The notes beneath the pieces are model-generated. The model ran no database searches and was not told the origin of the DNA. It saw only the letters and a list, made by a program, of their open reading frames with translations. The position numbers and the translations under genes were made by a program. Below, piece after piece: positions 27,028-57,225 of a stretch of DNA of 64,000 bases (positions are counted from its first letter, which is position 1; the number at the start of each line of letters is the position of its first letter). The stretch is taken from assembly GCA_963827155.1 (NCBI GenBank), contig CAWGZV010000002.1, positions 2,601,062-2,665,061 of the forward strand. Reading direction: 5' to 3'. The DNA is from an uncultured Chloroflexia bacterium. GTDB lineage: Bacteria; Chloroflexota; Anaerolineae; Anaerolineales; UBA4823.

Positions 27028-27060
27028 GCATATATATTTTATAGATAGGAGATTACTCGA

Positions 27061-27852
27061 GTGACAAAATTAATTTTTCTCGGGACATCGTTTGTTGTCC
27101 CTGCTTTCAACCATGAGAACACGCATCTTTTGATCCTTGGTGAAAAACAAAAAATTTTAATTGACACTGGTAATAATCCCACGGTGAGGCTGAAACAAGT
27201 TGGGCTTGATCCACTGGAATTGACCGATTTGCTGCTGACTCATTTCCATCCGGACCATATTTCTGGAGCGCCTTCACTCTTGTTGAACAGCTGGATATTG
27301 GGGAGAATAAAACCGCTGGATATCTATGGACTTGACGATACAATGCAGCGGTTCGAAAAAATGATGGATCTCTATCAGTGGGAGAACTGGCCGAACTTTT
27401 ATCCAGTCCATCTGCATCCCATAGAGCCACGGGAGCTGGTCGAGGTATTCAACAGCGAAGAATTCCTAGTCACCAGCTCGCCCGTCCATCATATGATCCC
27501 TGCATTTGGGATGAGGATCATATCCCACCGAACAAGGAGGTGCATTGTCTATTCAAGCGACACAGAGCCTTGCGATGAGGTTGTGAATCTTGCAGAGGGC
27601 GCCGATATCTTGATCCACGAAGCTACGGGGGCAAGCCTTGGACACAGCTCTGCCGCCCAGGCTGGTGAGATCGCTTCGAAGGCCCGGGTAAAAGAGCTCT
27701 ACCTGATCCATTACAAACGCCCATTATCCCACTCAACAGAATGGACCACTGCGGACGCATTAGCAAGCCGGAATAGTTTGGTGGATGAAGCGCGAACCAC
27801 CTTCGATGGTCCAGTAACGGTGGCTGAAGATTTTATGGAACTTGAGTTTTAA
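27061..27852 (+). CDS. RNase Z-like metallo-beta-lactamase-fold hydrolase
   Basis: LGTS, ILIDTG, THFHPDH, YSSDT, IHEAT, HSSA, LIH. Confidence 0.85.
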   Translation: MTKLIFLGTSFVVPAFNHENTHLLILGEKQKILIDTGNNPTVRLKQVGLDPLELTDLLLTHFHPDHISGAPSLLLNSWILGRIKPLDIYGLDDTMQRFEKMMDLYQWENWPNFYPVHLHPIEPRELVEVFNSEEFLVTSSPVHHMIPAFGMRIISHRTRRCIVYSSDTEPCDEVVNLAEGADILIHEATGASLGHSSAAQAGEIASKARVKELYLIHYKRPLSHSTEWTTADALASRNSLVDEARTTFDGPVTVAEDFMELEF

Positions 27853-27858
27853 TTGAAA

Positions 27859-28362
27859 TTACCAGCCTTGAATGAAAGGCAGCCACTCCTGGTTTTCTCC
27901 AAGATGACGAGCAAACAGGTAAACGGCCGAAGCTGAAGGTTCTTCTGGCGGACGCATGAGTTGCATCTGAACCTGATCTAAAGTCCTTCCCCCCTTGCGG
28001 TGATTACATGACGGGCAGGCTGCTACCAGATTTTCCCAAGAATGACTACCCCCAAGCCGGCGAGGAATCACATGGTCTATGGTCAAATACGAGACGCGCT
28101 GACCGCAGTATTGACAGGTGTATTCATCGCGGCGCAAGACTTCACGCTTAGTCAGGCGAACAGTCAAGCGAGGGCGTTTGATCATCTTATCGAGCCGAAT
28201 TATCGAAGGTTTTGGAAAGATTGCAGCGACCGATCGAACTTCGCCGCGTCCATTCAAGACTAGGCTGGCTTTTCCATTCAGGATCAACCCCATCGCCCGT
28301 CGGGTACTGCACACATTAATCGGCTCAAAGTTGGCGTTTAGAACCAGGACGGGTTCCTGCAT
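27859..28362 (-). CDS. HNH endonuclease (McrA-like, solitary)
   Basis: RDEYTCQYC, TIDHVIP, WENLVAACPSCNHRKG. Confidence 0.92.
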   Translation of the reverse strand: MQEPVLVLNANFEPINVCSTRRAMGLILNGKASLVLNGRGEVRSVAAIFPKPSIIRLDKMIKRPRLTVRLTKREVLRRDEYTCQYCGQRVSYLTIDHVIPRRLGGSHSWENLVAACPSCNHRKGGRTLDQVQMQLMRPPEEPSASAVYLFARHLGENQEWLPFIQGW

Positions 28363-28469
28363 CGGTTCCTCACAAACTTGCCGAATTATAGCATGGCTCT
28401 ATTTGTTGAAGGTTAACAGTCAACAGCTTGCCTATATACGACCTGTAAGCAGAAAATCCTTTATAATTA

Positions 28470-29001
28470 TTGACCATGATCGAAGAGAGCGATTTATCGG
28501 TCGGAGAATTCTTTCCTGAGCAGCTCTCACGGCGCGGCGAGCTCGTCGCATGGGTTACTACACTAATAACCCTGGTCGGATGGATGATATTATCTGTGCT
28601 GGATTTTTCGGTCTTTATCGGCTTGAAACTGCTCTGCATCTTGCTCGGATTTTCAGCGCTCGCAATTTCACTGGGAAACTGGATGGACCGCCGAACCAGA
28701 CTCGAGCTTATGCAAAATGGGATCCATTTTGAGAACGGTTTGCGAAAAGTGACTTTGAATTGGGATGGCGTCGAAAGAGTTCGATGTCACGCCATCCGAT
28801 TGGGGCAAGAAAGTCTCCGTGATCGGAACAGGTGCTCATTTCGAATTTCGCACGCTTGGCGAAGTAAGGGTGCGTGATGAGGTTAAGGGAAGGTTAGGGT
28901 TCGAGAAAGGCGAGGAAATCTTAGCGCATATCTTGAACAAGGCTCAGTTGATTAATGTATCGAGCACTGAGGAAGGTTGCAGCCATTATTCCAAAGGTTA
29001 A
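28470..29001 (+). CDS. Two-TM protein with PH-like soluble domain; frameshift ~28782
   Basis: ORFs 28470-28877 and 28765-29001 join by removing one base (VERV|DVTPSDWGKKV). Confidence 0.6.
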
Positions 29002-29027
29002 GCCTGTGGATCTGCGGCGAGCAGCCA

Positions 29028-29055
29028 GCGCCCTCCCGCAGAGGGCGCGTTTTTT
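29028..29055 (+). terminator. Rho-independent terminator upstream of tyrS
   Basis: GCGCCCTC-CCGCA-GAGGGCGC followed by GTTTTTT. Confidence 0.75.
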
Positions 29056-29097
29056 ATGATTTGAAAGCACTCATCTAATAAATATAGGAGACAATTC

Positions 29098-30324
29098 ATG
29101 GATAAGCGTCAGATGACAATTGAGCAGCAAGTCGAGTACTTAATGCAGGGGACTGAGTACGGTGACGAAACCCTCAAGCAAGCGATGGCAGAAGAGCTAG
29201 GCCAGCGGCTACTCGAATCCCAGAAAGAAGGTCGCCCACTGCGGATTTATTGTGGTTTCGACCCTCGCACTAGCGATCTCCACCTGGGTCACACCGTCCC
29301 GATGCGCAAGCTACGCCAGTTCCAGGAATTGGGTCATGAAGTCACATTTCTTATCGGGAACTACACCTCGCTCATTGGTGATCCATCCGATAAAGATAAA
29401 CTGCGCCCCCAGCTTACGCCCCAAGAAGTGCAGCAGAATGGCCAGACCTATGCAGAACAGGCTTACAAGGTACTGGATCGGGAGAAAACACTAATCCGAT
29501 ACAATGCTGAATGGCTTTCAAAATTGACATTTGCGGAACTGATCAACCTGGCGTCTAATTTTACTATTCAACAGTTTATCGGGCGTGAAAATTTCAAGCT
29601 TCGTTGGGAGCATGGCGATGCAATTTACCTTCATGAAACATTTTATGCAATCATGCAAGGTTATGACGCATACGCGATGAGGAGCGATGTGCAAGTTGGA
29701 GGAACCGACCAGCTTTTTAACATTATTACTGCCGCCCGTAAGTTAATGGTTTTCTTGAACGAAAAACCAAATATTGGCGTAATTATGGGCATTCTACCCG
29801 GTACTGACGGCGAAGTGAAAATGAGCAAGTCCCTTGGCAACCACATTCCTTTGCTTTCCACACCAGAAGATATGTACGGCAAAGTGATGAGCGTACCTGA
29901 CAAAGCCATGGGGTTGTATCTGCGATTATTGACGCGTTGGACTCCACCAGAGATCAATGAACTTGAAGCTGGATTAGCTTCCGGTTTCTATCATCCAAGA
30001 GATGTGAAGATGAAGCTGGCTCGCGAGATCGTTGCAATCTACCATTCCGAAGAATTGGCTGAAATGGCAGAACAGTACTTCGTACGCGTCTTCCAACAGG
30101 GTGACATGCCTGATGAAATGCCCGAGTTTCAGCTCATGGGGAACCAAAGTGTTCTCGAAATCCTGGTCAGCACAGGTTTAGTCAGCAGTAAAAGCGAAGG
30201 GAAGCGCATGATCGACCAACATGCAGTTCGATTGGACGGCGAAATCCTTAATGATCCAAATCAGGCTTTCCCTCATCCTGGTGTGCTTCAGGTGGGCAAA
30301 AGGCGCTACTTGCGGATTATTTAA
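29098..30324 (+). CDS. tyrS: Tyrosine--tRNA ligase
   Basis: YCGFDP, HLGH, MQGYD, GGTDQLFN, KMSKS, C-terminal S4 domain (VGKRR). Confidence 0.98.
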   Translation: MDKRQMTIEQQVEYLMQGTEYGDETLKQAMAEELGQRLLESQKEGRPLRIYCGFDPRTSDLHLGHTVPMRKLRQFQELGHEVTFLIGNYTSLIGDPSDKDKLRPQLTPQEVQQNGQTYAEQAYKVLDREKTLIRYNAEWLSKLTFAELINLASNFTIQQFIGRENFKLRWEHGDAIYLHETFYAIMQGYDAYAMRSDVQVGGTDQLFNIITAARKLMVFLNEKPNIGVIMGILPGTDGEVKMSKSLGNHIPLLSTPEDMYGKVMSVPDKAMGLYLRLLTRWTPPEINELEAGLASGFYHPRDVKMKLAREIVAIYHSEELAEMAEQYFVRVFQQGDMPDEMPEFQLMGNQSVLEILVSTGLVSSKSEGKRMIDQHAVRLDGEILNDPNQAFPHPGVLQVGKRRYLRII

Positions 30325-40949: not shown

Positions 40950-41363
40950 ATGAATGTCGATCCCGTGCCAAGAACCAAGACAACAATTTTATATGTCGAA
41001 GACAATACCGACAACCGCGTCCTGGTCAAGCGCATTTTAATGGCTGAGGGATTCGCGTTATTAGAAGCAGCGAATGCGCTCGAGGCGGTTGAGATGCTTG
41101 CAGACCGATCTGCGGATTTGATCCTGATGGACATCAACATGCCGGACATCGATGGCTATACGCTCACGACAATCTTCAAGTCTATCCCTGGGATAAGCCG
41201 AACCCCGATCATCGCAATGACCGCGAATGTGATGAAAGGCGATCGCGAGCGAAGCTTTGCCTCGGGCTGCGATGGTTATATCCAGAAGCCGATTGATGTT
41301 GATGCGCTCCCTCGTCAGATTGCCCGATTCCTCTACATGAGGGATTGTGAGAACAGGAGTTGA
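40950..41363 (+). CDS. Single-domain response regulator (DivK/CheY-like)
   Basis: YVEDN, LMDINMP, AMTA, YIQKP. Confidence 0.93.
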   Translation: MNVDPVPRTKTTILYVEDNTDNRVLVKRILMAEGFALLEAANALEAVEMLADRSADLILMDINMPDIDGYTLTTIFKSIPGISRTPIIAMTANVMKGDRERSFASGCDGYIQKPIDVDALPRQIARFLYMRDCENRS

Positions 41364-41807
41364 ACTTGGAGCGAGAATTCATAAGCGTACGTAATCCGGA
41401 TCCTATTTCCGATGGGATTACCGTTCTGGTCGTGGAAGACAATGTCGCTAATTTTATCTTAATTGCACGCATGTTGGGTTTGTTGGGAATTCATTGCGAA
41501 TGGAAAACTTCTGGATATGAAGTCGTTGAATATGCCGATAATCTCCCACGGCTCGATTTGATCCTCCTGGACATTCGGCTCCCTTATGAGGACGGATTCA
41601 GCGCATTGAAAAAGATCCGCGGGGCGGAAAGACTTAAACATACCGCTTGTAGTCGCCGTAACAGCGGAAGCGAGCAATGAACATATGAATAGAGCTCGTC
41701 TGGCACAGTTCGATGGATTCATAGGCAAACCATTGAACCCTGACCGCTTTCCCGACCAGATCCGTCGGATCCTGGCAGGTGATCCAGTTTGGGAAATTGA
41801 TCAGTAG
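41360..41807 (+). CDS. Second single-domain response regulator; frameshift ~41642
   Basis: VVEDN, LLDIRLP. The shifted frame supplies PLVVAVTA...FDGFIGKP...WEIDQ and a stop at 41805-41807. Confidence 0.85.
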
Positions 41808-41955
41808 TGTGTTTGTCAGGTTGCAATTCTGCAAGGAAACCTTCCATTAAAACGATTGGGAGGGATAATCTTTATCCGATATCCTTTTCTTTGAATGTCG
41901 AATCTGGCCTCCATTGTGATAAGAGGATGCTTTCATACACCAGGTTTATGGGAGA

Positions 41956-43697
41956 GTGCTGATGTCCTCACCTGAAAGCCCACCCACCCGGGTAACTCAT
42001 AATCACCTGACCCGCAGGATGACAATCACCATCCTTCCGGTTGGGCTGATCCCTGTCATTGTTATGGGATTGTTAATCTCCACTATCACGAATATGGCGG
42101 GGACCGTTGGAAATGCCGAGTTTTCCAGGCTCACAATTGGTTCAGTTGTCGCTTTGACTCTGATCGCATGGCTGGTATCTTGGCTGATCGCGAAAAGATT
42201 AGCAGGTCCCTTAGTCAGCTTGAGCCAGGCGATGGAAAGTTTTACTTTGGGGAACTGGGATCAACGTGCTTCAGTCTCTCAGAGAGATGACACTGCCAGG
42301 CTGGCAGAACTTTTCAACCAAATCGCGGATGAATATCGCTCAACTTACCAATCTCTGACGCTACGCGAAGGAGTGGGGCACGTTGGACCCGATCAGGGAA
42401 TCAGTCAGATCGCCTGGATAGCTGTTCAAGCAGAAAGCCAAACCGAGATGCTGGAGGGAGCGCTCGAGACGCTGGTTAGAGGCTTCGGCTTAACTTACGC
42501 GGCGATCTATCTAATCGAGCAAGATCATTTGCGCGAAAAACGCTCCGCCAATATGCTGCATTCTTACCAATTGCCAGGATTTGATGCTACAGGTACGGAG
42601 CAAATTAAGCGTCCAGATACAGTCGACCTTGAAACTGTCCCCACCCTCGAATGGCAGGTCAGTAAGGCGATCGCGACTCGTCAGGCACAAGTTGCAGAAA
42701 GCCATCAAGAGGTTGGATTATTCGAGGCGGCTGTGCCTTTATTGCGTGCCGGGCAAGTTATCGGAGCTTTGGAGCTTTTGGCTTTCAGCCGCAGCGGCGA
42801 TGCGCGACTCGGTCCTTTCGGGTGCGCGGTCTGGTGGAGATACAGAAGGCAGCAGGCATTATTGCACTTGGTCTGATCGATTCCCAACCCCTTGATTCAG
42901 ATTCCACGAAGGGGGAAAAATCTGAGGGAAAATCTGGATTGCTAAAGGAATCAATCTCGCTAAAAGAAACTGCTCAGGCACAAACAGATCGTCAACTTAG
43001 CCAGCTGCGAACATTCTGGAACATCAGTCAGGCTATTTCGCTTGAAACGGACCTCAATCCACTTTTTGAGATGATCCATCACCAGTTGGAGAATGCAATG
43101 GGAAATCTCAACTCATTTACCATCGCACTATATGATCTTGGAGAAAATGACCAGCTCGATGGGACTATCCGGATCCCATACTCTGTTGAAGATGGCCGAA
43201 AACTCAGGTATGAACCTTTTCCATTAGGAGAAGGATTGACATCCATTGTTATTCGAACTCGAAAATCACTCCTCATATCCAAAAATGTCGAAGAACAACT
43301 GCGGCAGCTGGATGTCAAGATGGCTGATATGCCCTCAAAGTCATGGTTGGGGGCACCGATGATTTACGCCGGAGATATGATTGGAGTAATCGTCGTACAA
43401 GATGTCACCAGGGATGATCGGTTCAACGAGGAAGACGAACGGATGCTGACAGCTCTTGCTGCCCAGGCTGCGGTGGTTGTTCGCAACGCCAGCCTCCTTG
43501 AGGCTGCTCGCCGGCAAGCAAGGCAAGAAAAATTAACCAATGAAATTACCGCTCGGGTTCGGCGTGCATCCGATATCCAGACGATCCTTATGACGACCGC
43601 GCGTGAGCTCGGAGCGGCACTAGGAGTTCGGAGTGCACATATCCATTTGAATCCCGAATTTTCAGAGCCACCGACGGGAATGGGGGCAGAGCCGTGA
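41956..43697 (+). CDS. Membrane HAMP-GAF-GAF sensor with no output domain; frameshift ~42820
   Basis: Two TMs, HAMP (PLVSL...DDTARLAELFNQ), GAF (WLGAPMIYAGDMIGVI), half-GAF tail. Confidence 0.8.
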
Positions 43698-45413
43698 AAC
43701 TATCGATCTTCAATTTGCGCGGGTCAGAGAATGGGTGGGGCGCCTCTAATAGTCCCTCAACTCGTTTCGGTCTGGACTCAACGGGCGATAAGAAGCTTGG
43801 TCTCGATATTAATAACCGAAATCCTGGCGTTGAACTTCGCACGCAGATGCTTAACAATCTGCTGATTGCTGCAGTTTTCACTTCAGGAATTCTATACCTG
43901 TTGGGATTACCAGCGATGCTTCAGGACCACCAATGGGGGCGGATTTTTGTATACGGACTGATTGCGATTACGATTATTGCTTTAAATCGGGCGGAAAAGC
44001 TCGTTTTCGCCTGGAGATCGGCAATTTTTCTTGGGATAATCTTTGCTGGCGGCGCATTCATGCTAGCAACCGAGGGTCTTTCCGGTAATGGTCGACTGCT
44101 GCTGCTGGCTCTACCTATTCTTGCTACATTCCTTCTGGTCGATTTTCGCTTCACCCACCTGCTCCGGTTCAGCGCCTGGGCATTAAGTCTGATTACGTTG
44201 GTTACGATTGGAATATTTACAATCCAGGGATATCTATCGATCGGAGAACCCGGGGAAAATAACCCAAATTGGGTGAGTGCAACCGTCGGTTTTCTGATGT
44301 TTGCATTCGTCGGTATGTTCACATTCGAACGCTATATCAAGATGCAGGAGGCAAATCACGACCGGCAGGTAGATCTCGCACGAGAGAGCGAGCTTTTGAT
44401 GAGCCGCTTGACAAAGCAGACAGGGATTTTAACCCACAGATTGATCCAAATCCGCACTGCCGCAGAGATCAACGCGGTAGCCAGCAGTCTGCAGGACCCA
44501 AAAACACTGTTTTACCAGGTGTGTGAGCTCGTTAGGGAACGATTCGGATTGTATTATGTTGGGATTTTTCTGATTGAACCGAATACAAATATGGCAGTGC
44601 TTACTTCTGGGACCGGTGAAGCCGGTAAGATCATGTTGGCAGAACATCATCAATTAGTTGTAGGGGGTGATTCGATGATCGGATGGGCGACAGCCAATCG
44701 TAAGGCGCGAATTGCACTAGATGTTGGACAAGAAGCGGTTCGTTTTAACAATCCGCATCTACCAGAGACTTCGATCTGAGCTGGCTCTCCCGATCGTCAG
44801 TCAGCAGGGGGCACTGGGAGCGATTACTATCCAATCGCAAATAGAATCCGCGTTCGATCAAGATGACATCATCGTGTTTCAAAGCGTAGCCGACAGCCTC
44901 GCCAGTGCGATCGAGAACTCCAGGCTTTTCGAACAGGTTCAGAATAATCTTGAGGAAATATCCACACTTCATCGCCAATATCTGCGTGAGGCCTGGTCCC
45001 AAGTAATTGAAGATCAAGGTCCACAGGAGTATCTTTATGAAGCCGGAACAGGACAAACCAGATCCCCAGGTCAGAATGTGAGCATTCATCTACCAATCCG
45101 CCTTCGAGAACAGGTGATTGGGGACATTCGATTGGATACCGACCCTGAACGAAAACCTGGAATGGAAGAGCTTGCTCTAGCTGAAAGCGTGCTGAGTCAA
45201 ACCGCTTTAGCGCTCGAGAACGCTCGCCTCTTAGAAGAAACTCGGCAACGCGCCAACCAGGAAATCCTGGCAGCTGCGATTACTACCAGAATCTGGTCCT
45301 CAAGTAATATCGAGACAATCATGCGCACTGCCCTTGAAGAGATTGGCAGCTCTCTTGATGTCGAAAGTGCATCGATCGAGATTTGGCCGCAGCATATGGG
45401 AGATAATCAATGA
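43694..45413 (+). CDS. Multi-TM GAF sensor with no output domain; frameshift ~44771
   Basis: About 5 TMs; GAF (SMIGWA, LPET|RSELALP after removing one T); half-GAF tail. Confidence 0.82.
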
Positions 45414-48346
45414 CCCCAACCGCTGAACTTACTCTCCAATATATCGGCTGGTTTCTCGCCCTCTTTGAACTGATTTTTGCGGTCTATCTTATTTTTATTA
45501 ATCCACGGAATCTCACTAATATCTTGGCAGGTGCTTTTATTTTCCTGTTAGCGGTGATCACTGTCGGCGTTGGTTCGTTAGCAGGAGCCGCCTATCGCAT
45601 GTCAGCCGAAACATATACCGGGCTATTAGCTGCCCTGATTCCAGCCCTTTTCCCATTGGAGTTGGCTGCCCTGATTTCTATCTTCCGACCTGCTGTTTTT
45701 CAATCTAAACGCTGGCGTTGGTTGGTGTGGGCTGTTGGAGTAATCGCACTTATTCCAGTGGTGTTAACGATCACGGATATTCGAACTGCCTGGTCACTTT
45801 GGTACAGTGGGATCCCGGCAGATTATTCCAGTGGGTATCTCCCTCTCCGCGCTTATACTCAGGGATTTCTTTCTCCGCTTGTCTATTTCATTAATTTCTT
45901 GTTGAGCGGTCTCGGGGTATTAATTTTCTTGATCAAAGCTGGTTTCTGGGAACAGCATGCTCCGAAAGCATATAAAAGGGCAGCCTGGATCCTGCTGATT
46001 GCTAACCTCGCGGTAGGGGCTGCTGCTGCTATTCAATCCAGTGGTATGGCAAGCGTGATCCTGGCGATCACTGCAACATTGGTTTACCTTCTTGGGATCG
46101 GGGCTGCCATTACAGGGGAACTCATCTCAGTTAACAATCCTGGTCGAAGCCTCCAGGTGCGGCTAACAGGTCTGACTTTGATTGTGGCGATCCCAATGAT
46201 CATTGGGATTTCGATGTTCCTGACTGAGCAGGCCCGCCGCAGTATGATTAGTAACGCTAACCAAAACCTGGGAACTGCAAACTATTCGGTGTACGGGTCA
46301 ATCAGTCAGTGGCTGGAATACAACAGCAAAGCCCTCCAGAACCTGGTTAGCAGCCCAGATGCAATCACTATGAACTCGCTGTGGCAAAAACCTCTCTTGG
46401 AAGAGATGGCTGTGAACTACCCATATATGTACCTGATCAGCACAGTGGATGTCAACGGGGTGAATAAAGCTCGCAGTGACAGTCAACCACTGGAAACATA
46501 CAAAGACCGCTATTGGTTCCAGAATGCAATGCGCGGCGCTCCGGTGACTTACGAAGCGTTGTTAGGCAAGACAAATGGAACGCCTTCACTGATCGTTTCG
46601 ATGCCTATTTATCGTGAGGATAAGCGTGTGGTAGGTGTTGGTATGTTTGCCAGCGAGCTAAGCGATGTCTCCAAAGTAGTACAGAATATTCAATTAGGAG
46701 TGGGAGGCAGCGCATTCGTCGTGGACCAGCGTAATGTAATGGTCTCTCACTCTGACCCAAAGGCTGCTCTGCTAGCAAACATGGGGGGCAATCCAGCGGT
46801 AAAAGCGATAAGAGAGGGGAAGCAGGGCGCTTTTGCATATTCAGACACTAAGGGAGAACGGATTGAAGCGTACATAGACCTGCTTCCCAATGGTTGGGGT
46901 GTTGTGACCCAACAAACTGAGGCCGGTATGTTCATGCCAATTCGCCAGATTCAAAAACTGGCGTACATCGTCCTCGTGATTGGCGCGGCATTAATGTCAC
47001 TGCTTGCCTGGACAACAATCCGGCAAGCACTTCGTCCAATTGAGGAATTGACTGAGATTGCCAGGTCCATCAGTCAAGGCAATCTGTCCCGACGAGTCGC
47101 AGTAACCACAGACAATCTGGACGATAAAGATGAACTGGGAACACTTGCTGATTCATTCAATCTTATGACGGACCAGCTTCAAGAACTGATCGGTGGATTG
47201 GAAAGCCGCGTCGACGAGCGAACAACAGAATTGAAACGGCGCATGTTGCAGCTCCAAGTGGCTTCAGAAGTAGCGAGAGAAACGGCTGCAATCAAGGATC
47301 ATGACAGATTATACGAACGCGTAGTCCACTTGATCTCCGAACGCCTCGGGTATGACCATGTCGGCATTTTTTCGATCGAGTCCCACCATTTTCCTGGTTC
47401 ACGGGCAGCTGATCCGACCCAGGGATTTGCAGTGCTGCGCTCAGCCTCATCAGAAGGCGGTGAGCGAATGTTGAGAAAAGGTCATAGGCTGCAGATTGGG
47501 CGGGAAGGCATTGTCGGTTTTGTCGCTTCAACAGGCAGACCCCGGATCGTGTTAGATGTTGGCAGCGATGCCGTATATTTTAATAATCCCGAGCTGCCGC
47601 TCACTCGGTCCGAGATGGCTCTGCCCCTTAAAATCCAAAATAAAGTGATCGGAATCCTCGATGTCCAGTCGAACCAGCCATCTGCTTTCACAAATGAAGA
47701 TTTAGAGATCTTGCAAATCCTGGCTGATCAGGTGGCGCTGGCAATCGAAAATGCGCGCCTGCTTTCAGAGAGCCGGGAGACAGTGCTTGAGCTTGAAACA
47801 CAATATGGAATGCAAATAAGCAAGGGTTGGGCTAAGCATTTAGGGAAAAAACCGATCGTTTACACTTACGATCGGGCTGGTAAGATTAAAATTAACCCGC
47901 CGAATGATGAGAGCGGTCCACAGGAAAATGGAGATAACATTCACGCTGAAATTAACGCTCCAATAGAGCTTCGAGGTCAACGAATTGGAGCCTTCAAACT
48001 TCGAAAAGAACAAACCTCAAAGGGTTGGTCTGAAGCCGACCAAAACCTGGTGCGTAAAACTGCAGCCCAGCTGGCATTATCCTTAGAAAATGCTCGCCTG
48101 ATGGAGGAGATTCGCAGCAAAGCAAACCAGGAAGAAATGATTAACAGCGTGGTTGCCAAAACCCAAAGTTCACTGAACCTCGAAAGTGTCATGAAAAAAG
48201 CAGTGCTTGAGATCGGACGCTCGATGCATCTTTCCAGGGTGCAAATTCGGCTGGGTACAGAACCATGCGAGTCCGGCGGAGGCTCTCCGGAGAACGGAAA
48301 TGGAAAAGGGGCAGGAAAGCACCAGACGCAGGAGTCGGAAGAATGA
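45410..48346 (+). CDS. Multi-TM Cache-HAMP-GAF sensor with no output domain
   Basis: About 7 N-terminal TMs; Cache-like region (YKDRYWF, AFVVDQRNVMVSH); HAMP (DELGTLADSFN); GAF (TRSEMALPL); half-GAF tail. Confidence 0.88.
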   Translation: MTPTAELTLQYIGWFLALFELIFAVYLIFINPRNLTNILAGAFIFLLAVITVGVGSLAGAAYRMSAETYTGLLAALIPALFPLELAALISIFRPAVFQSKRWRWLVWAVGVIALIPVVLTITDIRTAWSLWYSGIPADYSSGYLPLRAYTQGFLSPLVYFINFLLSGLGVLIFLIKAGFWEQHAPKAYKRAAWILLIANLAVGAAAAIQSSGMASVILAITATLVYLLGIGAAITGELISVNNPGRSLQVRLTGLTLIVAIPMIIGISMFLTEQARRSMISNANQNLGTANYSVYGSISQWLEYNSKALQNLVSSPDAITMNSLWQKPLLEEMAVNYPYMYLISTVDVNGVNKARSDSQPLETYKDRYWFQNAMRGAPVTYEALLGKTNGTPSLIVSMPIYREDKRVVGVGMFASELSDVSKVVQNIQLGVGGSAFVVDQRNVMVSHSDPKAALLANMGGNPAVKAIREGKQGAFAYSDTKGERIEAYIDLLPNGWGVVTQQTEAGMFMPIRQIQKLAYIVLVIGAALMSLLAWTTIRQALRPIEELTEIARSISQGNLSRRVAVTTDNLDDKDELGTLADSFNLMTDQLQELIGGLESRVDERTTELKRRMLQLQVASEVARETAAIKDHDRLYERVVHLISERLGYDHVGIFSIESHHFPGSRAADPTQGFAVLRSASSEGGERMLRKGHRLQIGREGIVGFVASTGRPRIVLDVGSDAVYFNNPELPLTRSEMALPLKIQNKVIGILDVQSNQPSAFTNEDLEILQILADQVALAIENARLLSESRETVLELETQYGMQISKGWAKHLGKKPIVYTYDRAGKIKINPPNDESGPQENGDNIHAEINAPIELRGQRIGAFKLRKEQTSKGWSEADQNLVRKTAAQLALSLENARLMEEIRSKANQEEMINSVVAKTQSSLNLESVMKKAVLEIGRSMHLSRVQIRLGTEPCESGGGSPENGNGKGAGKHQTQESEE

Positions 48347-50256
48347 GCGCAGCCGTTGATCATCAGATCAAATCGAACACACCTGAACAAAGCCGGAGAG
48401 GATTCTCGGTTGTCCAGAAGGCAGGATTAGCATTGATTATCATGATCTTCCTGGTAACTGCAGCCAGTGGGATCAGTCTCTGGTTTGCCGCCAGTGTACA
48501 ACAGTCCGTTAAATCAATGCGCACGGCAACTGAGCAGTCTATCCGAGTATCTGACCTCCAACTTCGCTGGTTGGCAATCGCTGGGATTTTGGATACACTA
48601 TCTGTTACCCGATCGACACCGGTGGTGAAAGAAGCTCTTAATGATCAGCTTGCAGAGCTGGAGAGACAGCTTGCTGCAATCGCTTCTGAGCCGCTTGGAT
48701 TGAGCTCGGAGATGATTGCCAAAAATCAAGCGCTGACAAACCAACTACGCAAGACTGGGCTTGAAATGACCACCCTGGTAGGCGAGCTGTACGAACTGAT
48801 TGAACAAGGACGATGGGGCACTGCGCTGCAGCGGCGTCAATCTGGCATGGCCGTGATGCAGGCTCAACTGGGCGAAACCTTATCTCAACTCAACGCTAAT
48901 ATTCAAAACGAAGTTACTGCTCAGGTAAGTGAGATCGCACGGATGCAGTCTCTTGCACGCTCTTTCGCTCTGGCAGCAGTAGCGATGGCATTATTATTTT
49001 CGGTGGCAGCTGTGTGGTTCACACGGCGTACGATCTTGCGCCCAGTCCAGAGATTAACAGCGGATGTCCGGAGAATTTCTGGGGCGCGCTCGGCCACCGA
49101 GCTTGGAGAAATAGAGCCGCTACCCCAACAAGATGAGCTTGGCGAGCTTTCACAGGCAATGTCGCGAATGGCAGGATGGCTTCGCGAATCCTATTTGAAA
49201 CTTGAAGAACAGGTTGAAGAGCGTACTGCGCAGCTCCATAAACGCTCGGTGCAGCTTGAAGTAGCCGCCCAAGTCGCTAAAGATATTGCGGCAACTCACG
49301 AGCTGGAAGTCCTTTTGTACCAGGCAGTCAACACCATTCGGGATCGATTCGATTTCTATCACGCCGGTATTTTCTTAATCGATCAGCAAGCTGAATTTGC
49401 AGTATTACGTGCTGCTACTGGAGAGGCAGGACGAGAGATGCTAGCGCGAGGACATCGATTGAAAGTTGGAGGGACGGGATTGGTTGGCCATGCCGCCCAG
49501 TCAGGTGAAAGTAGGATCAGCGCGGATGTCCGGTTTGAGCTGGAACATTATAAGAATCCACTGCTCCCCGAAACTCGATCGGAGGCTGCATTCCCACTTA
49601 TCGTAAGTGGGCAGGTCATTGGGGTCCTCGATGTTCAGAGCGATCGGGTGGAGGCTTTTGAGCAAGAGAGCGTAGAGACGATGCAAATTATGGCAGATCA
49701 ACTGGCGATCGCAATCCAGAACGCCAAGCTGATCCAGCAAAGTCAGGAAAACATCAGAGAGCTTGAGGCGGCATACAGCCGGATCAATAAGCAAGATTGG
49801 GTGCAATTTATTCGGCGAAGTGATGTCGTTGGGTATTCTTTCGATGGTCTGGAAATCCGTCCTATCATGCGAGAAAATCTCTCTTTCGATGGCTGCGAAC
49901 CAGACACAAGCGCAAATGAAACGGTAGAATCAACTGCAGATTTCAAGGTAGGAGCTGTTCATATTCCTCTACAGATCCGGGGTGAATTGATTGGCAATCT
50001 CGAATTATGGACTCAAGACGAAGAATTTACTGAAGATGATTTCATTGTGCTCGACACAATCAGCAGCCGGTTGAGTCAGATCCTGGACAGCGCCCGACTT
50101 TATGAGGATACTCAACGGAGAGCCGATAGAGAGCGCCTTGCTTCAGCCATCACAGCTAAGTTGCGAGCCTCTAACGATCCACATGCCATTCTTAGTACTG
50201 CAGTAAAGGAGCTTCGAAAAGCACTGCAAACAGAAAAGGAGCAGGTTTCTTTGTGA
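48343..50256 (+). CDS. Four-helix-bundle-HAMP-GAF sensor with no output domain
   Basis: TM, helical extracytoplasmic region, TM, HAMP (DELGELSQAM), GAF (TRSEAAFPL), half-GAF tail; ATGA overlap with the previous gene. Confidence 0.87.
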   Translation: MSAAVDHQIKSNTPEQSRRGFSVVQKAGLALIIMIFLVTAASGISLWFAASVQQSVKSMRTATEQSIRVSDLQLRWLAIAGILDTLSVTRSTPVVKEALNDQLAELERQLAAIASEPLGLSSEMIAKNQALTNQLRKTGLEMTTLVGELYELIEQGRWGTALQRRQSGMAVMQAQLGETLSQLNANIQNEVTAQVSEIARMQSLARSFALAAVAMALLFSVAAVWFTRRTILRPVQRLTADVRRISGARSATELGEIEPLPQQDELGELSQAMSRMAGWLRESYLKLEEQVEERTAQLHKRSVQLEVAAQVAKDIAATHELEVLLYQAVNTIRDRFDFYHAGIFLIDQQAEFAVLRAATGEAGREMLARGHRLKVGGTGLVGHAAQSGESRISADVRFELEHYKNPLLPETRSEAAFPLIVSGQVIGVLDVQSDRVEAFEQESVETMQIMADQLAIAIQNAKLIQQSQENIRELEAAYSRINKQDWVQFIRRSDVVGYSFDGLEIRPIMRENLSFDGCEPDTSANETVESTADFKVGAVHIPLQIRGELIGNLELWTQDEEFTEDDFIVLDTISSRLSQILDSARLYEDTQRRADRERLASAITAKLRASNDPHAILSTAVKELRKALQTEKEQVSL

Positions 50257-50315
50257 TCTGCTCCGGTTAAGGCAGATATTGGTCAACGCTGCAAATCGGC
50301 AAGATTGAACTGGAA

Positions 50316-51332
50316 GTGCATGAAACCCGAGATTATGGAGTTGAGTGTATGAACAACAACGAATTTACCCCGAAGGATCAAAGTGTCTTCGAACCAGGAC
50401 CGGAGACTTCAATCGAGCCGCATGCGGATGATAATTCGCAATCAAAAGATCTGGACATTCATCACAGCAGTGAAACTGGGTTGGAAACCAAATCCAAGAA
50501 CCCTTTGGTTATAGCGCTTGCGAACCAAAAAGGAGGTGTGGCTAAAACAACCAGCGCAGTCTCGTTGGGAGGCGCATTGGCGAGCAGATCGTTTGATGTA
50601 TTGTTAATAGATTTGGACGCCCAGGCTAATTTAACGCTTGCACTGGGGAAAGATCCAGCTCGAGTGCGCAGCTCGATAACGGATGTGCTCTTCCATTCGG
50701 CAACGCTGTTGAGCGTCAGCAGGGAAACCAATATCCCTGGGTTGGATCTTGTGCCATCAAATTCTGGAATGGAGCTCGCTGAACGTTTCTTGCCAGTTCG
50801 AAAAGATTATGAAACTATCATGAAGCGAATTTTCGATAAGGAGCTGCGTACTATTGGCAAGTCGGGATCTCGCCTTGAAATGCGAGAAAGTCCATCTTTC
50901 GAACATATTCTTCCAGTAATTCAATATGATTACATTATTCTGGATTGCCCACCATTTATGGGGGCGGTCACATTGAATGCTTTGATTGCATCCGACCTGC
51001 TGATCATCCCTACCCAACCAGAATTCTTCTCGGCTCACGCACTGCGTACGATGATGACCTCGATCCGCCAGGTGAGGGCTCAACTCAATACAAATCTTGT
51101 TTACCGAATCCTGGTCACGATGTTAGATAAACGTAACCGAATCCATCGCCAGATCCGCGATCAGATTATTAAGACCTTTGGCGAAGGTGTCTTTTCCACG
51201 ATTATTGAGGTAGATACCAAGCTGCGCGAGAGCGCGATTGAGGGAAAGCCAATCCATTATCACAAGGCACATACTCGGAGTGCGATCCAATATGATGCCT
51301 TAGCGCAGGAGATTATCGATTATGGTCGCTAG
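50316..51332 (+). CDS. ParA/Soj-family ATPase (orphan, no parB)
   Basis: ANQKGGVAKTT, IDLDAQANL, DLVPS, ILDCPP, IIPTQPE. Confidence 0.92.
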   Translation: MHETRDYGVECMNNNEFTPKDQSVFEPGPETSIEPHADDNSQSKDLDIHHSSETGLETKSKNPLVIALANQKGGVAKTTSAVSLGGALASRSFDVLLIDLDAQANLTLALGKDPARVRSSITDVLFHSATLLSVSRETNIPGLDLVPSNSGMELAERFLPVRKDYETIMKRIFDKELRTIGKSGSRLEMRESPSFEHILPVIQYDYIILDCPPFMGAVTLNALIASDLLIIPTQPEFFSAHALRTMMTSIRQVRAQLNTNLVYRILVTMLDKRNRIHRQIRDQIIKTFGEGVFSTIIEVDTKLRESAIEGKPIHYHKAHTRSAIQYDALAQEIIDYGR

Positions 51333-54300
51333 ATATCCACCACAAAAAGAACTGATCAAGCGCCGTGATCGACAGGATCGAGAAGAAATTCCGGAATGTC
51401 CTGCTTGGGATAAAGAAAGCCTGGAGTTCACACCAGGTGAGGAAGGGCGATCAGGATCACAAGCAAAGAAGCGGATCGAAGATCTTTTTTCCGGGTTGTT
51501 GAAGGAATCACACGGGAAAGATCGACCAGATGCATCTGAAGAGACTACCGTTGCAAATGAAACGAAAACTGGCTTTGAGATTAATGAATGGCGAATAAAT
51601 CCGGGGCTGAACGCCGATTTTCGATCTGAACCGGTTGACCTGGACTGGTACGGCCCTAGAAGGCATCCACTTAGCCTACCAGAAAATTTCGGATCCACTG
51701 AGTTCGAAGCGGATGAGTTCGGGGGATTAGCTACTCATCGATCCATTGAGATAAGCTCACCGGCAGAATCGCCACAACCCTTCCCAGAACTGGCTCCGCA
51801 AACCGGCGAGTGGATCGCGGCGCCGACAACTCTGGCACTCACCAAGGCGGAGACCCTTTCTCCTAATATGCTGCTGGAGCTTGTGGATCAAAAACCGCAG
51901 CGCCGCTGGAACGAGGACGAGCTGCTGTTGGTTGAACAGGTTGCAGACCAGCTGACGCTTGCTTTAGAGAATGCACAGCTCTTCGAACAAACCCAGCAAG
52001 CGAGAGACGCCTTGCAAATCAGCGTCCGGTATCAGAAAAGTGTGGCTGAAGCGGTCTCGATCCTGAGCGAACGCGGTTATTCGGCCATCTCGGAAGTGCT
52101 TCAAGTCTTAGGCGAGGCTGCTCAAGTGAGCAGGGCTACCGTTTTCGAGATTGAGGTTGATCTGCACGGCCCATATTTTAGGAGTTCATCGGAATGGCAT
52201 GCGCCAGAGGTTGATTCGCGTTTGGTCGACCCTGAAATGCATCGGATTGCAGGGGATTGGCTGAAACCCTGGATCGACCAGATAGATCGCGATGGACATC
52301 TCACCGCAGATATTCACAGCGCTCCTCTTAAAGGCGGGGCATTGGTGAAAACCCTCGGCGCAAAAACCATTCTGCAGTTCATCGTTCGCGGGCAGCATGG
52401 TGCTCCGAGATGCCTCAGTTTCGAACAAACAGATTTCGTCCGAACGTGGAGCAGCGATGAAATTGCGGCACTCGATACAGCCGCTTCAGCGCTTGCGAAC
52501 ACAATTCTGCGGGAAAACCTCTTCAACCAACTCCAGGTCAACCTTTCTGAGACGGAAGCCCAGTATCAGGCAAGCGCCCAAATCAATTCAGCGAACAGTC
52601 CAGATGAAATCCTCTCAATTTTGAGGCAGTTCACTATTCTCGGCCACAACCATGTTTCAAATGTTTCCATCTGCCTGTTCGATATACCCTGGACGAAAAC
52701 GGAAAAACCAGCCTGGTTGGCTCCGGCAGCAGTATGGTCCTGTCCGTCACAACCCGAGTTTCTTTCAGAAAGAACCGCAAACCTTGATTGGTTGAATGAA
52801 GAATTGCTGTTTAATTCCGAAGGCACTACATCGGTGTTTGACATCGAGAGCGATCCCAATTTCAACAGGCAATCGAAATCCCAATTGATCGAGACGTTCA
52901 AAACGAAGAGCTTGCTAAGCGTGCCGCTGAACGTTTCAGGACGCTGGATTGGCTCAATCATTGCGCTTTTCAACCAGACAACCGGATTTTTAGAGAGGGA
53001 AATTCGGCGGTTAGAATCACTTTCCGGGCAGGCTGCAGTCGCACTTGAAAGCCAGCGCCTGCTCTCTGAGACTCGGCAAAGAAACGAAGAGCTGCTAGTC
53101 ATGAACCAGGTATCCAGCGCAGTCAGCCGCACACTGGAGCTGGACCAGGTGCTTAACGAGATCTTGGAGCGAGCACTTGAAATGACGGGTTTCGATGGGG
53201 GGTTGATCTCATATGTTCATCCCGAATCTCAAAAATTGATTCTGGCAGTTGCCTGCAACCTACCCTCTGCAATGTCTGAGAGATTGGATCAAACCGGCCT
53301 TGGGGGTACGCCATGCGATCTGGTATATCAGTCGGGAATAACCATTAACATTTCAGACCTGACTGGTATCTCTGAGGTATTTATTAAGTTTCCAGATGAA
53401 GTGAAAGCCGAATGGCCTGAAGAGCGGGTATCGAAAGCCTTCGCCGGATTGAAAGCTATGGGATATCAGGCTTACCTGGGCGTCCCGCTGATGGTTAAAA
53501 GGCACACCCCTTGGCACTGTCTGTTTATTCAGTCGGTCGACGAGAGAGCTTCCACCTGTTCGGATTGAGCTAGCCGAAGCAATTGGAAAGCAAGTGGGAG
53601 TTGCAGTTGATAACGCCCGGCTTTTCAGGAACACCCAAAACGCGCTTGGGGAGACCGAAGGTCTTTATCAGGCAAGCTCAGAGCTGAACTCGGTCCAAAC
53701 TTATGAGGATATCCTGGATTCGCTTCGCCGATACACCATCCTGGGAAAATCGGATCGGTTGATCAGTATTTTGCTTTTTAACCACCCCTGGTTCATTAAG
53801 GAGGAGAAACGCCAGACGGGCAGACTGCCAGCCGATTCAGAACTCAATAAACCGGAATGGCTGGAGGCTTATGCATGCTGGTCACAAGCTCCAGCTGAAT
53901 TCACTTTCACCCGAATCGAGGTCGAAAAATTCCCAGGGTGGTCGCTCGCGCTCCAGCAAGGCATGAGAATTCTTGAAGATGTCGGGGCTGACTCAAGCAT
54001 GGAGGACGAACAGCGCCGTTATATCGTGGAAAAACTCCAAGCTCAGGCTGTGATTTGGTCGCCGCTTTACGTTGGAAATTTATGGATTGGTCTGATCTTT
54101 GCAGCCTTCGGTGAAACCATTACAGGTTGATGATTTTCAAAAAAGGCGGCTTAATTCACTCAGCGGTCAGGCTGCAATCGCAATCCAAAACCTGCGCCTG
54201 CTGGAGGAAAGCCGCCGCCGGGCGAACCAACTGCAAACCGCTGCCGAAATTGCCCGAGACACGTCCAGCACGCTTGCCCTCGACAGCCTGCTCCAACGGA

Positions 54301-56075
54301 TTGTTCGATTGATTGTCGAGCGATTTGGCTATTATCACGCTTCGATCTTCCTGATTGAGGAGGATGGCAACGAAGCAGTAGTGCGTGAGGCGACTGGGAC
54401 TGCTGGGGAAGAGATGAAGCGAACAGGTCACCGCCTGGAGGTGGGTGGGCGATCGGTAATTGGTACGGTAACCGCATCTGGAAAATCATTCTTGTTAAAT
54501 GATGTGAGCTCTGAAGAAGCCTTATCCATCCACCACCCGAATCCGCTTCTGCCTAACACAAGAGCCGAGCTCGGACTGCCGCTGAAGATTGGCGAGCGGG
54601 TGATCGGGGCATTCGACGTCCAATCGGACCTGGTGAATTCATTTTCTGAAGACGAGGTAAACGTGCTGCAAATTCTTGCAGACCAGGTCGCGGTAGCTGT
54701 AGACAATGCCCGATCCTACGAACTTGCCCAACAAGCGGTGAAGGAAATCAGCGAAGCGGATCGCTTAAAGACCCAGTTCCTAGCTAATATGAGCCATGAG
54801 CTGCGCACGCCGCTGAACTCTATTATCGGTTTTTCCAGGGTAATCCTGAAAGGCATCGATGGGGCGATAAATGAGCAGCAGACCCAGGATCTGACGGCGA
54901 TTTACAACTCGGGACAGCACCTGCTCGGATTGATCAACGACGTCCTGGACGTATCCAGGATCGAAGCCGGGAAGATGGACCTGAACTTCGAAGATAATGT
55001 GAACCTGAGCGAGATCATCCGAGGGGTGATGTCTACAACCATTGGGCTCGTGAAAGACAAGCCAATCGCGCTGCACCAGAACATCGACAGCAATTTACCA
55101 CTGGTGACAGCCGATGCGATGAAGATCCGCCAGGTGCTGATCAACCTGCTATCTAACGCTTCAAAATTCACCGAACAAGGCAGCATCACGGTCGAAGCCT
55201 CTCCATACAGCGGAACGGATGGCGATCCGCAGGTAATCGTGCGGGTTATCGACAGCGGACCCGGCATCCTACCGATCGATCAGGCTAAACTATTTCAACC
55301 CTTCTCGCAGGTGGACGGCTCGCTTACCAGGAAGACGGGCGGATCTGGGCTTGGGCTTTCGATCTGCAGCCACCTTGTACGGATGCATCACGGTCAAATC
55401 GGAGTGGAAAGCGAGATTGGAAAAGGAAGCACTTTCTTCTTCACCCTTCCAATCAGGCAGCCTGAGCCGAAAGAGGAAAGCGACCCTGAAGCAACACAGC
55501 TGGTTGAGACCAATCCATCATTGAATAAGGCTACCCTGGCTTTAGATACCGAACTCCACAGCGAGCAAGCCGGTGAAGCTGGACCCAGACCAGAACTGAC
55601 CAATTTCCGCGGAACAGGCACAATTTCTGGCGGCCCGCTGCCGAACACAAAGTCCCGGCTGATCCTGTCTATCGACCCAGACCCGAAGGTCATAGACCAA
55701 TACCGCCGCTACCTGGCTGGCAGCACGTGCACGGTAATCGCTCTAACGCGCATCGACCAGGCAATCACGGTTGCGCGTGGGGTGCAGCCTTATGCGATCA
55801 CGCTCGATGTCACGATGACGGGCGCTCAAGGCAAAAACCGGACCGGACCGCTCAGCCCGGCTTTGGGTTTGCTTTCGGGTAAAGGCAGCCTGGATGGTTA
55901 TAAAGTGCTCAAAGAATTGAAGGCCGATCCGTCCACAAGCCACATCCCCGTGATCGTCTGCTCAACCGCGGCGCAGGAGGAGAAAGCCCGCGAAGCAGGC
56001 GCTGACGATTATCTACTCAAACCGATTCTGGAGGACGACCTTGTGCAGGCTGTTCAACGCCTCGAGAGGAAATGA
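51322..56075 (+). CDS. Cytoplasmic multi-GAF hybrid histidine kinase (~1580 aa repaired); frameshifts ~53498 and ~54107
   Basis: Three ORFs join by single-base removals. Serial GAF domains; H-box FLANMSHELRTPL; NLLSNASKF; DSGPGI; GGSGLGL; C-terminal receiver (TLDV...LLKP). Confidence 0.88.
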
Positions 56076-56187
56076 AAAGCAGCGCCCTGGCGGTCAAATC
56101 GAAGACCGGCTGCAAGGAAGACCTGCTGCAAGATGGCAAATTTCGCGGCGATCGATCTCTTTAACGAAGTCTGGTTAGCCGATCCAT

Positions 56188-57225
56188 ATGAGGAGCGCTG
56201 AACTGTCGACCGTCCATATTCCCAAGAAAGGAGTGCTAGCCGCACTGAGCTCCGCACTGTGCCTGGGACTGGCGCCAGTATTTGGGCGGATGGCGATCTT
56301 GTATGGGATTCCATCGCTGGCAGTTGTTGCCATCCGTACAACCCTGGCTGCGCTACTGCTACTGATTGCAGTTTTGATCTTCGGACGAAAGTACCTGTAC
56401 ATCTACCCTGCCGGGCTGCTCGGCTGCCTACTTGCAGGGTGGATCAATGGATTCGGATCGCTCTTTTATTATTTCGCGTTGAGCAGGATCAATGCCAGCC
56501 TCGGACAGCTGCTCTTTTCGCTGTACCCTCTTTTCCTGGTCTTATGGCTTTCACTGGACAGACAGGCTCCCAGCAAGCTGACAATCTTGCGGTTGGGGCT
56601 TGCGCTGCCGGCGATTATCCTGATCGTTGGGACAGAACAGAGCAAACCGGATCTCCTCGGAGCTGGCGCGATGCTGATCGCGGCTATCCTTTATGCTCTG
56701 CACCTGCCGATCAATCAGAGAGTGCTCTATGATATGCCGCCCCAGACCGTGACGCTCTACACGCTGATGGCGATGAGCGCAGTCGTCCTGCCGCCATTTC
56801 TCTTCTCGAACGGCGGGGGCTGGATTGGAGCTCCTTTCCAAGGCGGCAGCGCTGCACATTTAGGAGTTAGCCCAGCTCAGATGGTGGCGCCGCTGATCGG
56901 GTTAACGCTGGTGACCTTTTTTTCACGCCTGATGCTGTTCACGGGCGTCAAACACTTAGGAGGAATGCAAACCGCGTTACTGGGTTTAGGCGAGCTGCTG
57001 GTTACGCTGGTCTTTGCACAAATTTTCCTGGATGAAACCCTGACAACGACGCAATGGGCTGGCGCTGGCTTGCTGATGGCAAGCTTGATGATGGTGGGGT
57101 TGGAAGGAGGCGAAACTCGCAGAGGCACGAACAGAGGATTCTTACGCTGGCTCAGCCCAATCACCTATCATGAATCCGTTCTGCCAGCACAGCTCTCTGA
57201 AAATGGAAGCACAACGGATTTGTGA
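56188..57225 (+). CDS. DMT/EamA-family transporter
   Basis: About 10 TMs in two EamA-like halves; LFSLYP, LGELLVT. Confidence 0.88.
   Translation: MRSAELSTVHIPKKGVLAALSSALCLGLAPVFGRMAILYGIPSLAVVAIRTTLAALLLLIAVLIFGRKYLYIYPAGLLGCLLAGWINGFGSLFYYFALSRINASLGQLLFSLYPLFLVLWLSLDRQAPSKLTILRLGLALPAIILIVGTEQSKPDLLGAGAMLIAAILYALHLPINQRVLYDMPPQTVTLYTLMAMSAVVLPPFLFSNGGGWIGAPFQGGSAAHLGVSPAQMVAPLIGLTLVTFFSRLMLFTGVKHLGGMQTALLGLGELLVTLVFAQIFLDETLTTTQWAGAGLLMASLMMVGLEGGETRRGTNRGFLRWLSPITYHESVLPAQLSENGSTTDL

Follow-up and report, generated by a model that had tools for sequence, protein, structure and literature searches.

Membrane receptors of Chloroflexota that end in a conserved fragment of a GAF domain and are encoded upstream of a single hybrid histidine kinase

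Described systems and the receptor locus

Two-component signalling usually joins one sensor to one kinase, and to our knowledge the chemotaxis array is the only well-understood design in which many receptors act on a single kinase. Here we describe a compact gene row (positions 40950-56075, forward strand) in a 64,000-nucleotide stretch of DNA from an uncultured Chloroflexia bacterium (assembly GCA_963827155.1, contig CAWGZV010000002.1, positions 2,601,062 to 2,665,061), which we call the window and whose own numbering is used throughout. This row encodes two receiver-only response regulators, four membrane receptors (R1 to R4), an ATPase of the ParA/MinD type and a hybrid histidine kinase. 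All four receptors end in a tail of approximately 47 residues with the order helix-helix-strand (α1-α2-β1), the first third of a GAF domain, and the kinase starts with an orphan last third of one behind a disordered stretch. Whatever the mode of contact, the tail probably couples the receptors to their shared kinase.

In chemoreceptor arrays, many methyl-accepting chemotaxis proteins (MCPs) signal to one CheA through a conserved tip, with the ParA-like positioning proteins PpfA and ParC/ParP (PMC3964821, PMC6829392, PMC5706961). These arrays are the closest functional analogue of the present locus: varied sensors share a near-invariant distal end and one kinase, the cluster includes a ParA/MinD-type ATPase, and the receptors are non-catalytic. 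Each receptor is built as a variable membrane sensor (HAMP alone, MASE11 or dCache) followed by a constant cytoplasmic rod (a complete GAF, usually a reduced "mini-GAF", and the tail). R1 (41956-43697) reads transmembrane (TM)-HAMP-GAF-GAF-tail, R2 (43694-45413) MASE11-GAF-mini-tail, R3 (45410-48346) TM-dCache-HAMP-GAF-mini-tail, and R4 (48343-50256) TM-HAMP-GAF-mini-tail; the sensors thus vary, with HAMP only in R1 and R4, and GAF domains are common to all four. Pfam identifies no HisKA, HATPase, GGDEF, MCP or DNA-binding domain in R1-R4, and both HisKA and HATPase_c in the downstream kinase. The sole output of the receptors is a conserved, deliberately incomplete domain. The likeness to a chemosensory array is functional only: unlike the arrays, this locus encodes no MCP signalling domain, CheA, CheW, CheB or CheR (Pfam; all genes between 39967 and 58552), its constant part is GAF-based, its kinase is a HisKA-type hybrid, and its conserved end is a truncated globular domain instead of a helical hairpin tip.

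A second point of comparison is the NreA-NreB system of Staphylococcus carnosus, in which a stand-alone GAF sensor binds and switches a histidine kinase (PMC12423327 and its references 19 and 23). In both systems a GAF protein without an output domain would control a separate kinase by contact, which is direct for NreA-NreB and a candidate here. NreA is one complete, soluble, ligand-binding GAF, whereas here an incomplete GAF stands at the end of a membrane receptor and many receptors are encoded with one kinase.

The receptor rod itself resembles tandem GAF and GAF-PHY rods, in which a continuous α5-α1 helix forms the spine. The receptor segment β5-β6-α5-α1-α2 aligns with residues 151-244 of 8w26 (SyB-Cph1 GAF-PHY; domain E 3.8e-10), and a profile search of the PDB likewise aligns the tail with the GAF-to-PHY spine of this structure; the tail corresponds in these terms to the beginning of the domain after the spine helix. 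In the solved rods, however, that domain is present in full within one polypeptide, whereas here the chain stops past β1. In the docking domains of nonribosomal peptide synthetases (NRPS) and polyketide synthases (PKS), and in the donor-strand complementation of chaperone-usher pili, terminal elements or a foreign strand complete a folded unit. If the docking considered below is true, the present locus would be similar, with a C-terminal element and the N-terminal element of the next gene product giving one fold; there is no sequence relation to either, the elements are fragments of a signalling domain, and the outcome would be signal transfer instead of assembly order or fibre growth. In the literature that we searched, neither this operon nor the use of a split GAF for docking was described. 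The locus would represent a second many-receptors-to-one-kinase design, built from GAF parts and with its tails in 35 of the 301 Chloroflexota genomes sampled.

The receptor tails

The tails are located at 43509-43649 in R1 (RRQARQEKLTNEITARVRRASDIQTILMTTARELGAALGVRSAHIHL), 45243-45383 in R2, 48113-48253 in R3 and 50113-50253 in R4. A hidden Markov model (HMM) of the tail scores them at 71, 77, 67 and 83 bits, respectively; no internal GAF start in this 4.9-Mb genome exceeds 31 bits, and the four are the sole terminal tails of that genome. Past the HMM match there remain 14 residues in R1, 8 in R2, 29 of low complexity in R3 and 0 in R4, the last residue of which is also the last of the strand; measured from the quoted strand, the four proteins end 0, 9, 15 or 30 residues later.

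The initial annotation had read these tails as the first part of a GAF, and profile comparison bears this out: the tail aligns to columns 4-43 of the receptors' own complete GAF (hhalign, E 2.5e-4) and, in the PDB search, with the first approximately 45 residues of several solved GAF-only structures. Submitted alone, the four tails give no match to the Pfam GAF models PF01590 and PF13185 even at E values up to 10. Neither the tail nor the N-terminal piece of the kinase spans the full GAF profile from the N-terminal helices to α5; each is a fragment and not a GAF domain. No Pfam or NCBIfam model covers the tail, and a Pfam match to a docking domain (E 0.022) is weak and below threshold.

The tail consensus is ALENARLfEeTQRRAeRERLi.EITaKIRas.D.e.ILqTAv.ELg.ALG.sra.v.Lg. 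Its strand is amphipathic, and the alternating pattern of hydrophobic residues is conserved. Past the strand the hydrophobic residues disappear and the proteins finish in a low-complexity end rich in G, S, E, P, A and D (median 17 residues), where internal GAF starts run on into β2. A pool of all sequences fetched contains 201 distinct proteins with a terminal tail; what precedes the tail is a mini in 145 of these, a complete GAF in 42 and unassigned in 14. The C-terminus of R4 has approximately 40 homologues, all from Chloroflexota metagenomes, that end alike. The median score is 68-74 bits for terminal tails and 19-20 bits for internal GAF starts. The tail is a real, conserved and apparently undescribed module, and it marks this receptor family cleanly at the sequence level, whatever the docking mode; by sequence, it is a distinct and more conserved subclass of GAF start. 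In a sensor family that has no enzymatic or DNA-binding output, it would be the conserved output and docking element.

Random truncation and pseudogenes were considered as the origin of the common stop point and were rejected on conservation. The initial annotation had also argued from the four independent stops against random truncation, and the wider sample agrees: the stop is a family trait of 201 distinct tails, not one of which belongs to a protein with an H-box motif (0/201), compared with 58 of 100 comparison proteins without a terminal tail that carry one. A related explanation is that the receptors arose when the 5' portion of a sensor-kinase gene was copied and truncated within the following GAF, in which case the tail would be a functionless remnant and signalling would take another route. 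The kinase of one family has the receptor layout (TM-GAF-mini and so on) followed by minis, a GAF and the kinase core, which fits such an origin. However, the difference in conservation between terminal tails and ordinary GAF starts speaks against it, as does the retention of tails across several families, with 4-14 paralogues per genome in the well-populated ones; a neutral leftover would decay or vary in its end point. We consider this explanation highly improbable.

The AlphaFold2 model of R4 (residues 310-663 in open reading frame numbering, 33 sequences) has a mean predicted local distance difference test (pLDDT) score of 85. It consists, in order, of the complete GAF, a long helix, a four-stranded mini, a continuous helix (model residues 281-325), a back-folding helix (330-345) and nine final residues. 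The continuous helix is the α5 of the mini running into the α1 of the tail, and the last nine residues are modelled in this single chain as coil with no strand pairing (pLDDT 85-87). A six-stranded GAF sheet sandwiched by helices is seen in none of the pieces concerned: the tail is two helices with an unpaired end, the mini has four strands, and the kinase N-terminal piece is a weak hairpin and a helix. Completion in cis, in which the mini and its own tail would form a circularly permuted GAF, is not predicted, because the tail strand is unpaired and a continuous 45-residue helix separates the tail from its mini; it was rejected on these grounds and on the 42 of 201 tails that follow a complete GAF. 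A fold search with the receptor model returned matches dominated by the complete GAF and was uninformative on the tail.

This model is, on the other hand, what would be expected of a dimeric end-cap, in which the α1-α2 hairpins of a receptor homodimer form a four-helix bundle, similar to that of the α1/α2 helices at the interfaces of GAF dimers, that closes the signalling helix, and no GAF fold is completed. Such a bundle could offer a surface that is recognized by the kinase, the ParA-type ATPase or a response regulator, like the chemoreceptor tip, or it could merely stabilize the rod. The helix hairpin is confidently predicted (pLDDT about 90), with no strand for the last residues; the conserved residues specific to the tail are located on the helices and are for the most part charged or polar (TQRRAxRERL, EITxKIR, ILxTAxxEL); the tails are conserved universally and not per genome, as chemoreceptor tips are; and the minis appear autonomous, so that nothing requires completing. 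A cap leaves unexplained, however, why the cut always falls just past an amphipathic strand with conserved alternating hydrophobic residues, why the kinase retains an orphan hairpin and helix behind a disordered tether, and why the tail and the C-terminal GAF part score as one GAF when they occur in cis (see below). On balance we regard the end-cap as somewhat doubtful.

The kinase N-terminus and its coupling to the receptors

R2, R3 and R4 carry a mini-GAF, a reduced GAF without α2-β1, between the complete GAF and the tail. It is located at 44925-45239 in R2 (from alignment and a spacing of 100 residues between successive GAF C-part ends), at 47759-48109 in R3 (from alignment and a 115-residue spacing) and at 49729-50109 in R4, where AlphaFold2 predicts four strands between two long helices (model residues 212-217, 222-226, 255-262 and 265-273; pLDDT mostly 80-92 outside a disordered internal loop). 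By hhalign, the receptor mini is placed on GAF columns 62-158. The unit preceding the tail of R1 is a complete GAF and not a mini, as the Pfam GAF_2 profile is matched at positions 2-135 of 136 in the second piece of that gene.

The hybrid histidine kinase (51322-56075) has, by Pfam, a disordered N-terminus, an orphan GAF C-part, several GAFs, HisKA, HATPase and a receiver. The orphan C-part (TLAL...MLLELVDQKPQRRWNEDELLLVEQVADQLTLALENAQLFEQTQ) lies at 51829-51996 and matches the Pfam GAF profile only at positions 104-133 of 133 and GAF columns 101-163 by hhalign; this N-module is homologous to the receptor mini (hhalign probability 98.8%, E 8e-17). In a single-chain AlphaFold2 model of kinase residues 100-420, approximately 80 disordered residues (100-180, pLDDT below 50) precede a weak hairpin (170-173/185-188; TLAL, LELV), which is followed by a long helix (pLDDT 85) leading into a complete GAF. 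The initial annotation had seen a low-complexity stretch before the first ordered segment, and its reading of that segment as the end of a GAF is upheld by the profile positions and by the predicted β-hairpin plus α5; the N-terminus here is not predicted to form a complete domain of its own, the model giving the weak hairpin and helix only. Neither of the two outcomes that the initial annotation had named as refuting, tails that fold only as homodimeric bundles or a complete domain at the kinase N-terminus, was thus seen in the single-chain models. In the kinases of a related family (f2), a conserved basic peptide and approximately 70 disordered residues are followed only by YSINIQTGDQDWATLRLLDE..RRW.. 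plus α5. In two of the five f2 kinases that we read, a PAS-like domain rather than a GAF seems to come next (a reading of the sequence, not a Pfam result), and the f2 orphan piece therefore appears to be part of no complete GAF. In this genome and in family f2, the two groups with the clearest arrays, the kinase really does start with the orphan last third of a GAF behind approximately 70-170 disordered residues.

The two fragments are linked by gene order. At approximately 25 loci in Anaerolineales, Caldilineaceae and other families, tandem tail-ending genes stand directly upstream of one multi-GAF hybrid kinase, and in every locus checked that has both, the tails and the kinase N-module share an operon and the homologous C-part opens the kinase. 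At the loci checked, no receptor gene shares a reading frame with the kinase gene. A ParA-type gene lies between receptors and kinase in the Anaerolineales relatives and is absent from the Caldilineaceae loci and from a further family (f11); clades without the ParA gene keep the tails upstream of the kinase, so the kinase is the constant partner of the tails.

A tail and a C-part also occur in one chain. P0311, P0266, P0016 and P0262 are receptors with two or three (mini-tail) units. Their high-scoring non-terminal tails are followed by a low-complexity linker of 5-45 residues and then a mini. The Pfam GAF model reads tail, linker and mini as one full-length domain in three of the four pieces submitted (E 9e-9, 6e-7 and 3e-7). 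Coverage of PF01590 (profile length 133) by tail plus C-part is 4-133 in P0223 (36.4 bits, cut-off 22.4), 3-133 in P0311 and 5-133 in P0016, and GAF_2 is covered at positions 3-136; in the P0262 piece, only the C-part was matched. P0223 and the 83% identical P0323 (2810 and 2811 amino acids [aa], respectively) are natural end-to-end fusions of a tail-ending PAS-GAF receptor with a kinase of the Caldilineaceae type. Their residues 135-834 are colinear (47-48% identity), through the tail, with the receptor adjoining the kinase upstream at loci L017 and L028, and residues 873-2804 are colinear (51% identity) with the kinase of these loci from the N-module on. A linker of 22 residues (G/P/S) joins the tail strand to the first strand of the mini.

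Based on these sequences and models, we put at roughly 0.38 the probability that the tail and the C-part of the kinase complement each other in trans, which would make this the most likely single mechanism. In a GAF, β1 pairs with the last strand and α1, α2 and α5 lie on one face; because of this topology, the two fragments would be a contiguous unit of three helices and three strands. The receptor tail and the kinase C-part would assemble into a small, pocket-less, GAF-like unit in which α1, α2 and α5 form a three-helix layer over a β1-β6-β5 sheet. The rebuilt unit would stand at the start of the helical spine formed by the GAFs of the kinase, along which the conformational state of the docked receptor could pass to the dimerization and histidine phosphotransfer (DHp) and catalytic core. 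Since the tail consensus is near-identical throughout, any receptor could occupy the site. More tentatively, it is possible that the whole arrangement works as a plug and a wire: up to 14 interchangeable receptors would carry the GAF N-fragment, the kinase would carry the matching C-fragment on a flexible tether, and the domain would be restored on docking, at the start of the spine. If the fragments do pair, the locus would hold a natural split-domain docking device, which would be categorically new; it would show how a signal can run along a GAF helical spine from one protein to another, and would provide a ready-made modular connector for engineered sensors.

Several observations weigh against complementation in trans. 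The model of the kinase N-terminus is based on only 19 sequences and has a mean pLDDT of 67. The mini, to which the kinase N-module is homologous, is predicted by AlphaFold2 as a self-contained four-stranded domain. The kinase of family f11 is membrane-bound and has a GAF and a tandem of three full minis that are not separated by tail elements, and the N-module of the Caldilineaceae kinases is a full mini; minis are thus stable domains without α2-β1, and in both groups there may be no vacancy for a tail to fill. Most receptors hold an orphan mini of their own adjoining the tail, which docking to the kinase only would leave unexplained. The P0223/P0323 fusion unites genes that are already neighbours and so has little independent weight. 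Coevolution analysis, one of the checks proposed in the initial annotation, gave no signal: tail identity is 0.37 within a genome and 0.35 between genomes, and the nearest neighbour of a tail is in the same locus in 6 of 49 cases, so that the tails show no genome-specific co-variation, nor any trace of having co-evolved with a partner specific to the genome. An interface conserved universally would likewise show none.

The homology of the kinase N-module to the mini (98.8% probability) is also compatible with a different mode, in which homologous mini-plus-spine-helix modules pair: the mini-α5-α1 of a receptor would lie alongside that of the kinase in a parallel coiled-coil, in the manner of paralogous dimerization modules, and the tail would only extend the pair of helices. 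The same ENARL...spine helix follows both modules, and through β1 the C-terminus of the receptors and the N-terminus of the kinase are colinear. This mode is unlikely, however, in view of the 42 of 201 tails that follow a complete GAF instead of a mini, among them R1 and the first receptor of all operons examined. In addition, the kinase module here has lost most of the mini, and in a mixed dimer the second chain of the kinase would lack a partner.

Numbers of fragments per operon suggest yet another arrangement. In each of the eight complete operons, that of this window included, the tail of the first receptor is preceded by a complete GAF, and nearly all later receptors carry a mini. Because only the first receptor has a complete GAF before the tail, orphan tails equal orphan C-parts in number, the kinase counted, in seven of the eight; in the exception (G015), one further receptor also has a complete GAF before the tail and the kinase has three minis. 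The matching counts in seven of eight operons, each with exactly one complete-GAF receptor as its first gene, would fit head-to-tail chaining, in which each tail completes the orphan mini of the next receptor and the last tail completes the kinase module, giving a non-covalent multi-GAF chain or array. The proteins that repeat (mini-tail) two or three times with flexible linkers would also be in keeping with this. However, on parallel membrane-anchored rods a tail and a mini are one domain level apart, as judged from tandem-GAF geometry, and with up to 14 receptors the offset from the membrane would grow; moreover, the minis fold alone in the AlphaFold2 model and occur in tandem without tails. 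Chaining is distinctly unlikely in our view. Receptor-receptor polymerization, which the initial annotation had allowed for beside docking to the kinase, would thus fit the counts of tails and minis, to the cost of complementation by the kinase, but would be geometrically awkward for membrane-anchored rods.

Gene row, reading frames and relatives

The operon begins with a receiver-only response regulator gene (40950-41363, an open reading frame; in relatives the corresponding position is occupied by one or two receiver genes). The second response regulator (41360-41680) is short: Pfam Response_reg (E 1.2e-10) is matched at profile positions 1-70 of 111, and a further frame break may have cut the gene short. 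From the R1/R2 junction through ParA/kinase, the start of each gene overlaps the end of the preceding one, the start of R2 with the stop of R1 included, except at R4/ParA. R4 most likely starts with the ATG at 48343, which overlaps the stop of R3; the database gene call for this protein (P0002) has the corresponding 637 aa. Pfam matches are HAMP and GAF_2 in R1, MASE11 and a GAF C-part in R2, dCache_1, HAMP and GAF in R3, and HAMP and GAF in R4.

The ParA/MinD-type gene (50316-51332), between the receptors and the kinase, is matched by Pfam AAA_31 (E 2e-42) and CbiA (E 1e-19). Its product has the fold of a deviant Walker A ATPase, and the NCBIfam ParA/MinD models match below their equivalog cut-offs. 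The kinase carries a conserved N-terminal peptide at 51466-51501 (KKRIEDLFSGLL; MPKKPKIDKRLDKLF in family f2), recognized in alignments. In the kinases adjacent to a ParA gene (L034-L043), this basic or amphipathic peptide is conserved and is followed by a proline-rich disordered stretch; at loci without a ParA gene, the kinase N-termini are of other kinds. The peptide is of interest in relation to ParA and not to the tail. Membrane-bound kinases with a GAF and three minis, at loci without a ParA gene, are found at 12757-16791 of L044 (G002) and at 25667-29539 of the joined stretch L045/L046 (G015).

R1 and R2 are each broken by one frame change (at 42822-42876 and 44721-44779) and the kinase by two (53568-53594 and 54099-54130). 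R1 is therefore read in two frames, 41956-42876 and 42822-43697, as is R2 (43694-44779 and 44721-45413), and the kinase in three (51322-53568, 53594-54130 and 54099-56075). The break in R1 lies beside a GGG run. In R2, the frame shifts by one base within '...cca gag act tcg atc tga'; relatives have PETRSELALP at this point. The first break in the kinase is at an AAAA run and the second near an AAA run, at a position that could not be placed exactly. Long genes are also split elsewhere in the window (6061-7635/7559-11341 and 35188-36495/36401-37600), and similar splits are seen in related long-read metagenome bins. Gene decay was rejected as an explanation: because the breaks are at or beside short base runs and the same splits occur in other genes of the window and in long-read relatives, we judge them to be indels of the long-read assembly, and the genes not to be pseudogenes. 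The kinases of relatives are intact, with lengths of 1050-2720 aa.

Tails number 4-14 per genome in the well-populated families and 1-2 in some more distant genomes, and in each of seven genomes mapped they are all in one locus. A profile search of 1.84 billion representatives with mini plus tail as the query returned mostly giant multi-GAF proteins and served only as a sample, not as a census. The three f2 genomes G043, G019 and G193 (loci L034-L035, L038-L039 and L042-L043) have 13-14 tail matches at E of 1e-9 or less, and 11-12 tail-ending receptor genes in an unbroken tandem row of approximately 25 kb, a very large paralogous array for one kinase. In the loci of relatives, the kinase is often followed by a PALP+receiver gene (approximately 560 aa); this gene is missing at that place in the window, where a gene for an EamA transporter lies directly downstream of the kinase (56075-57225).

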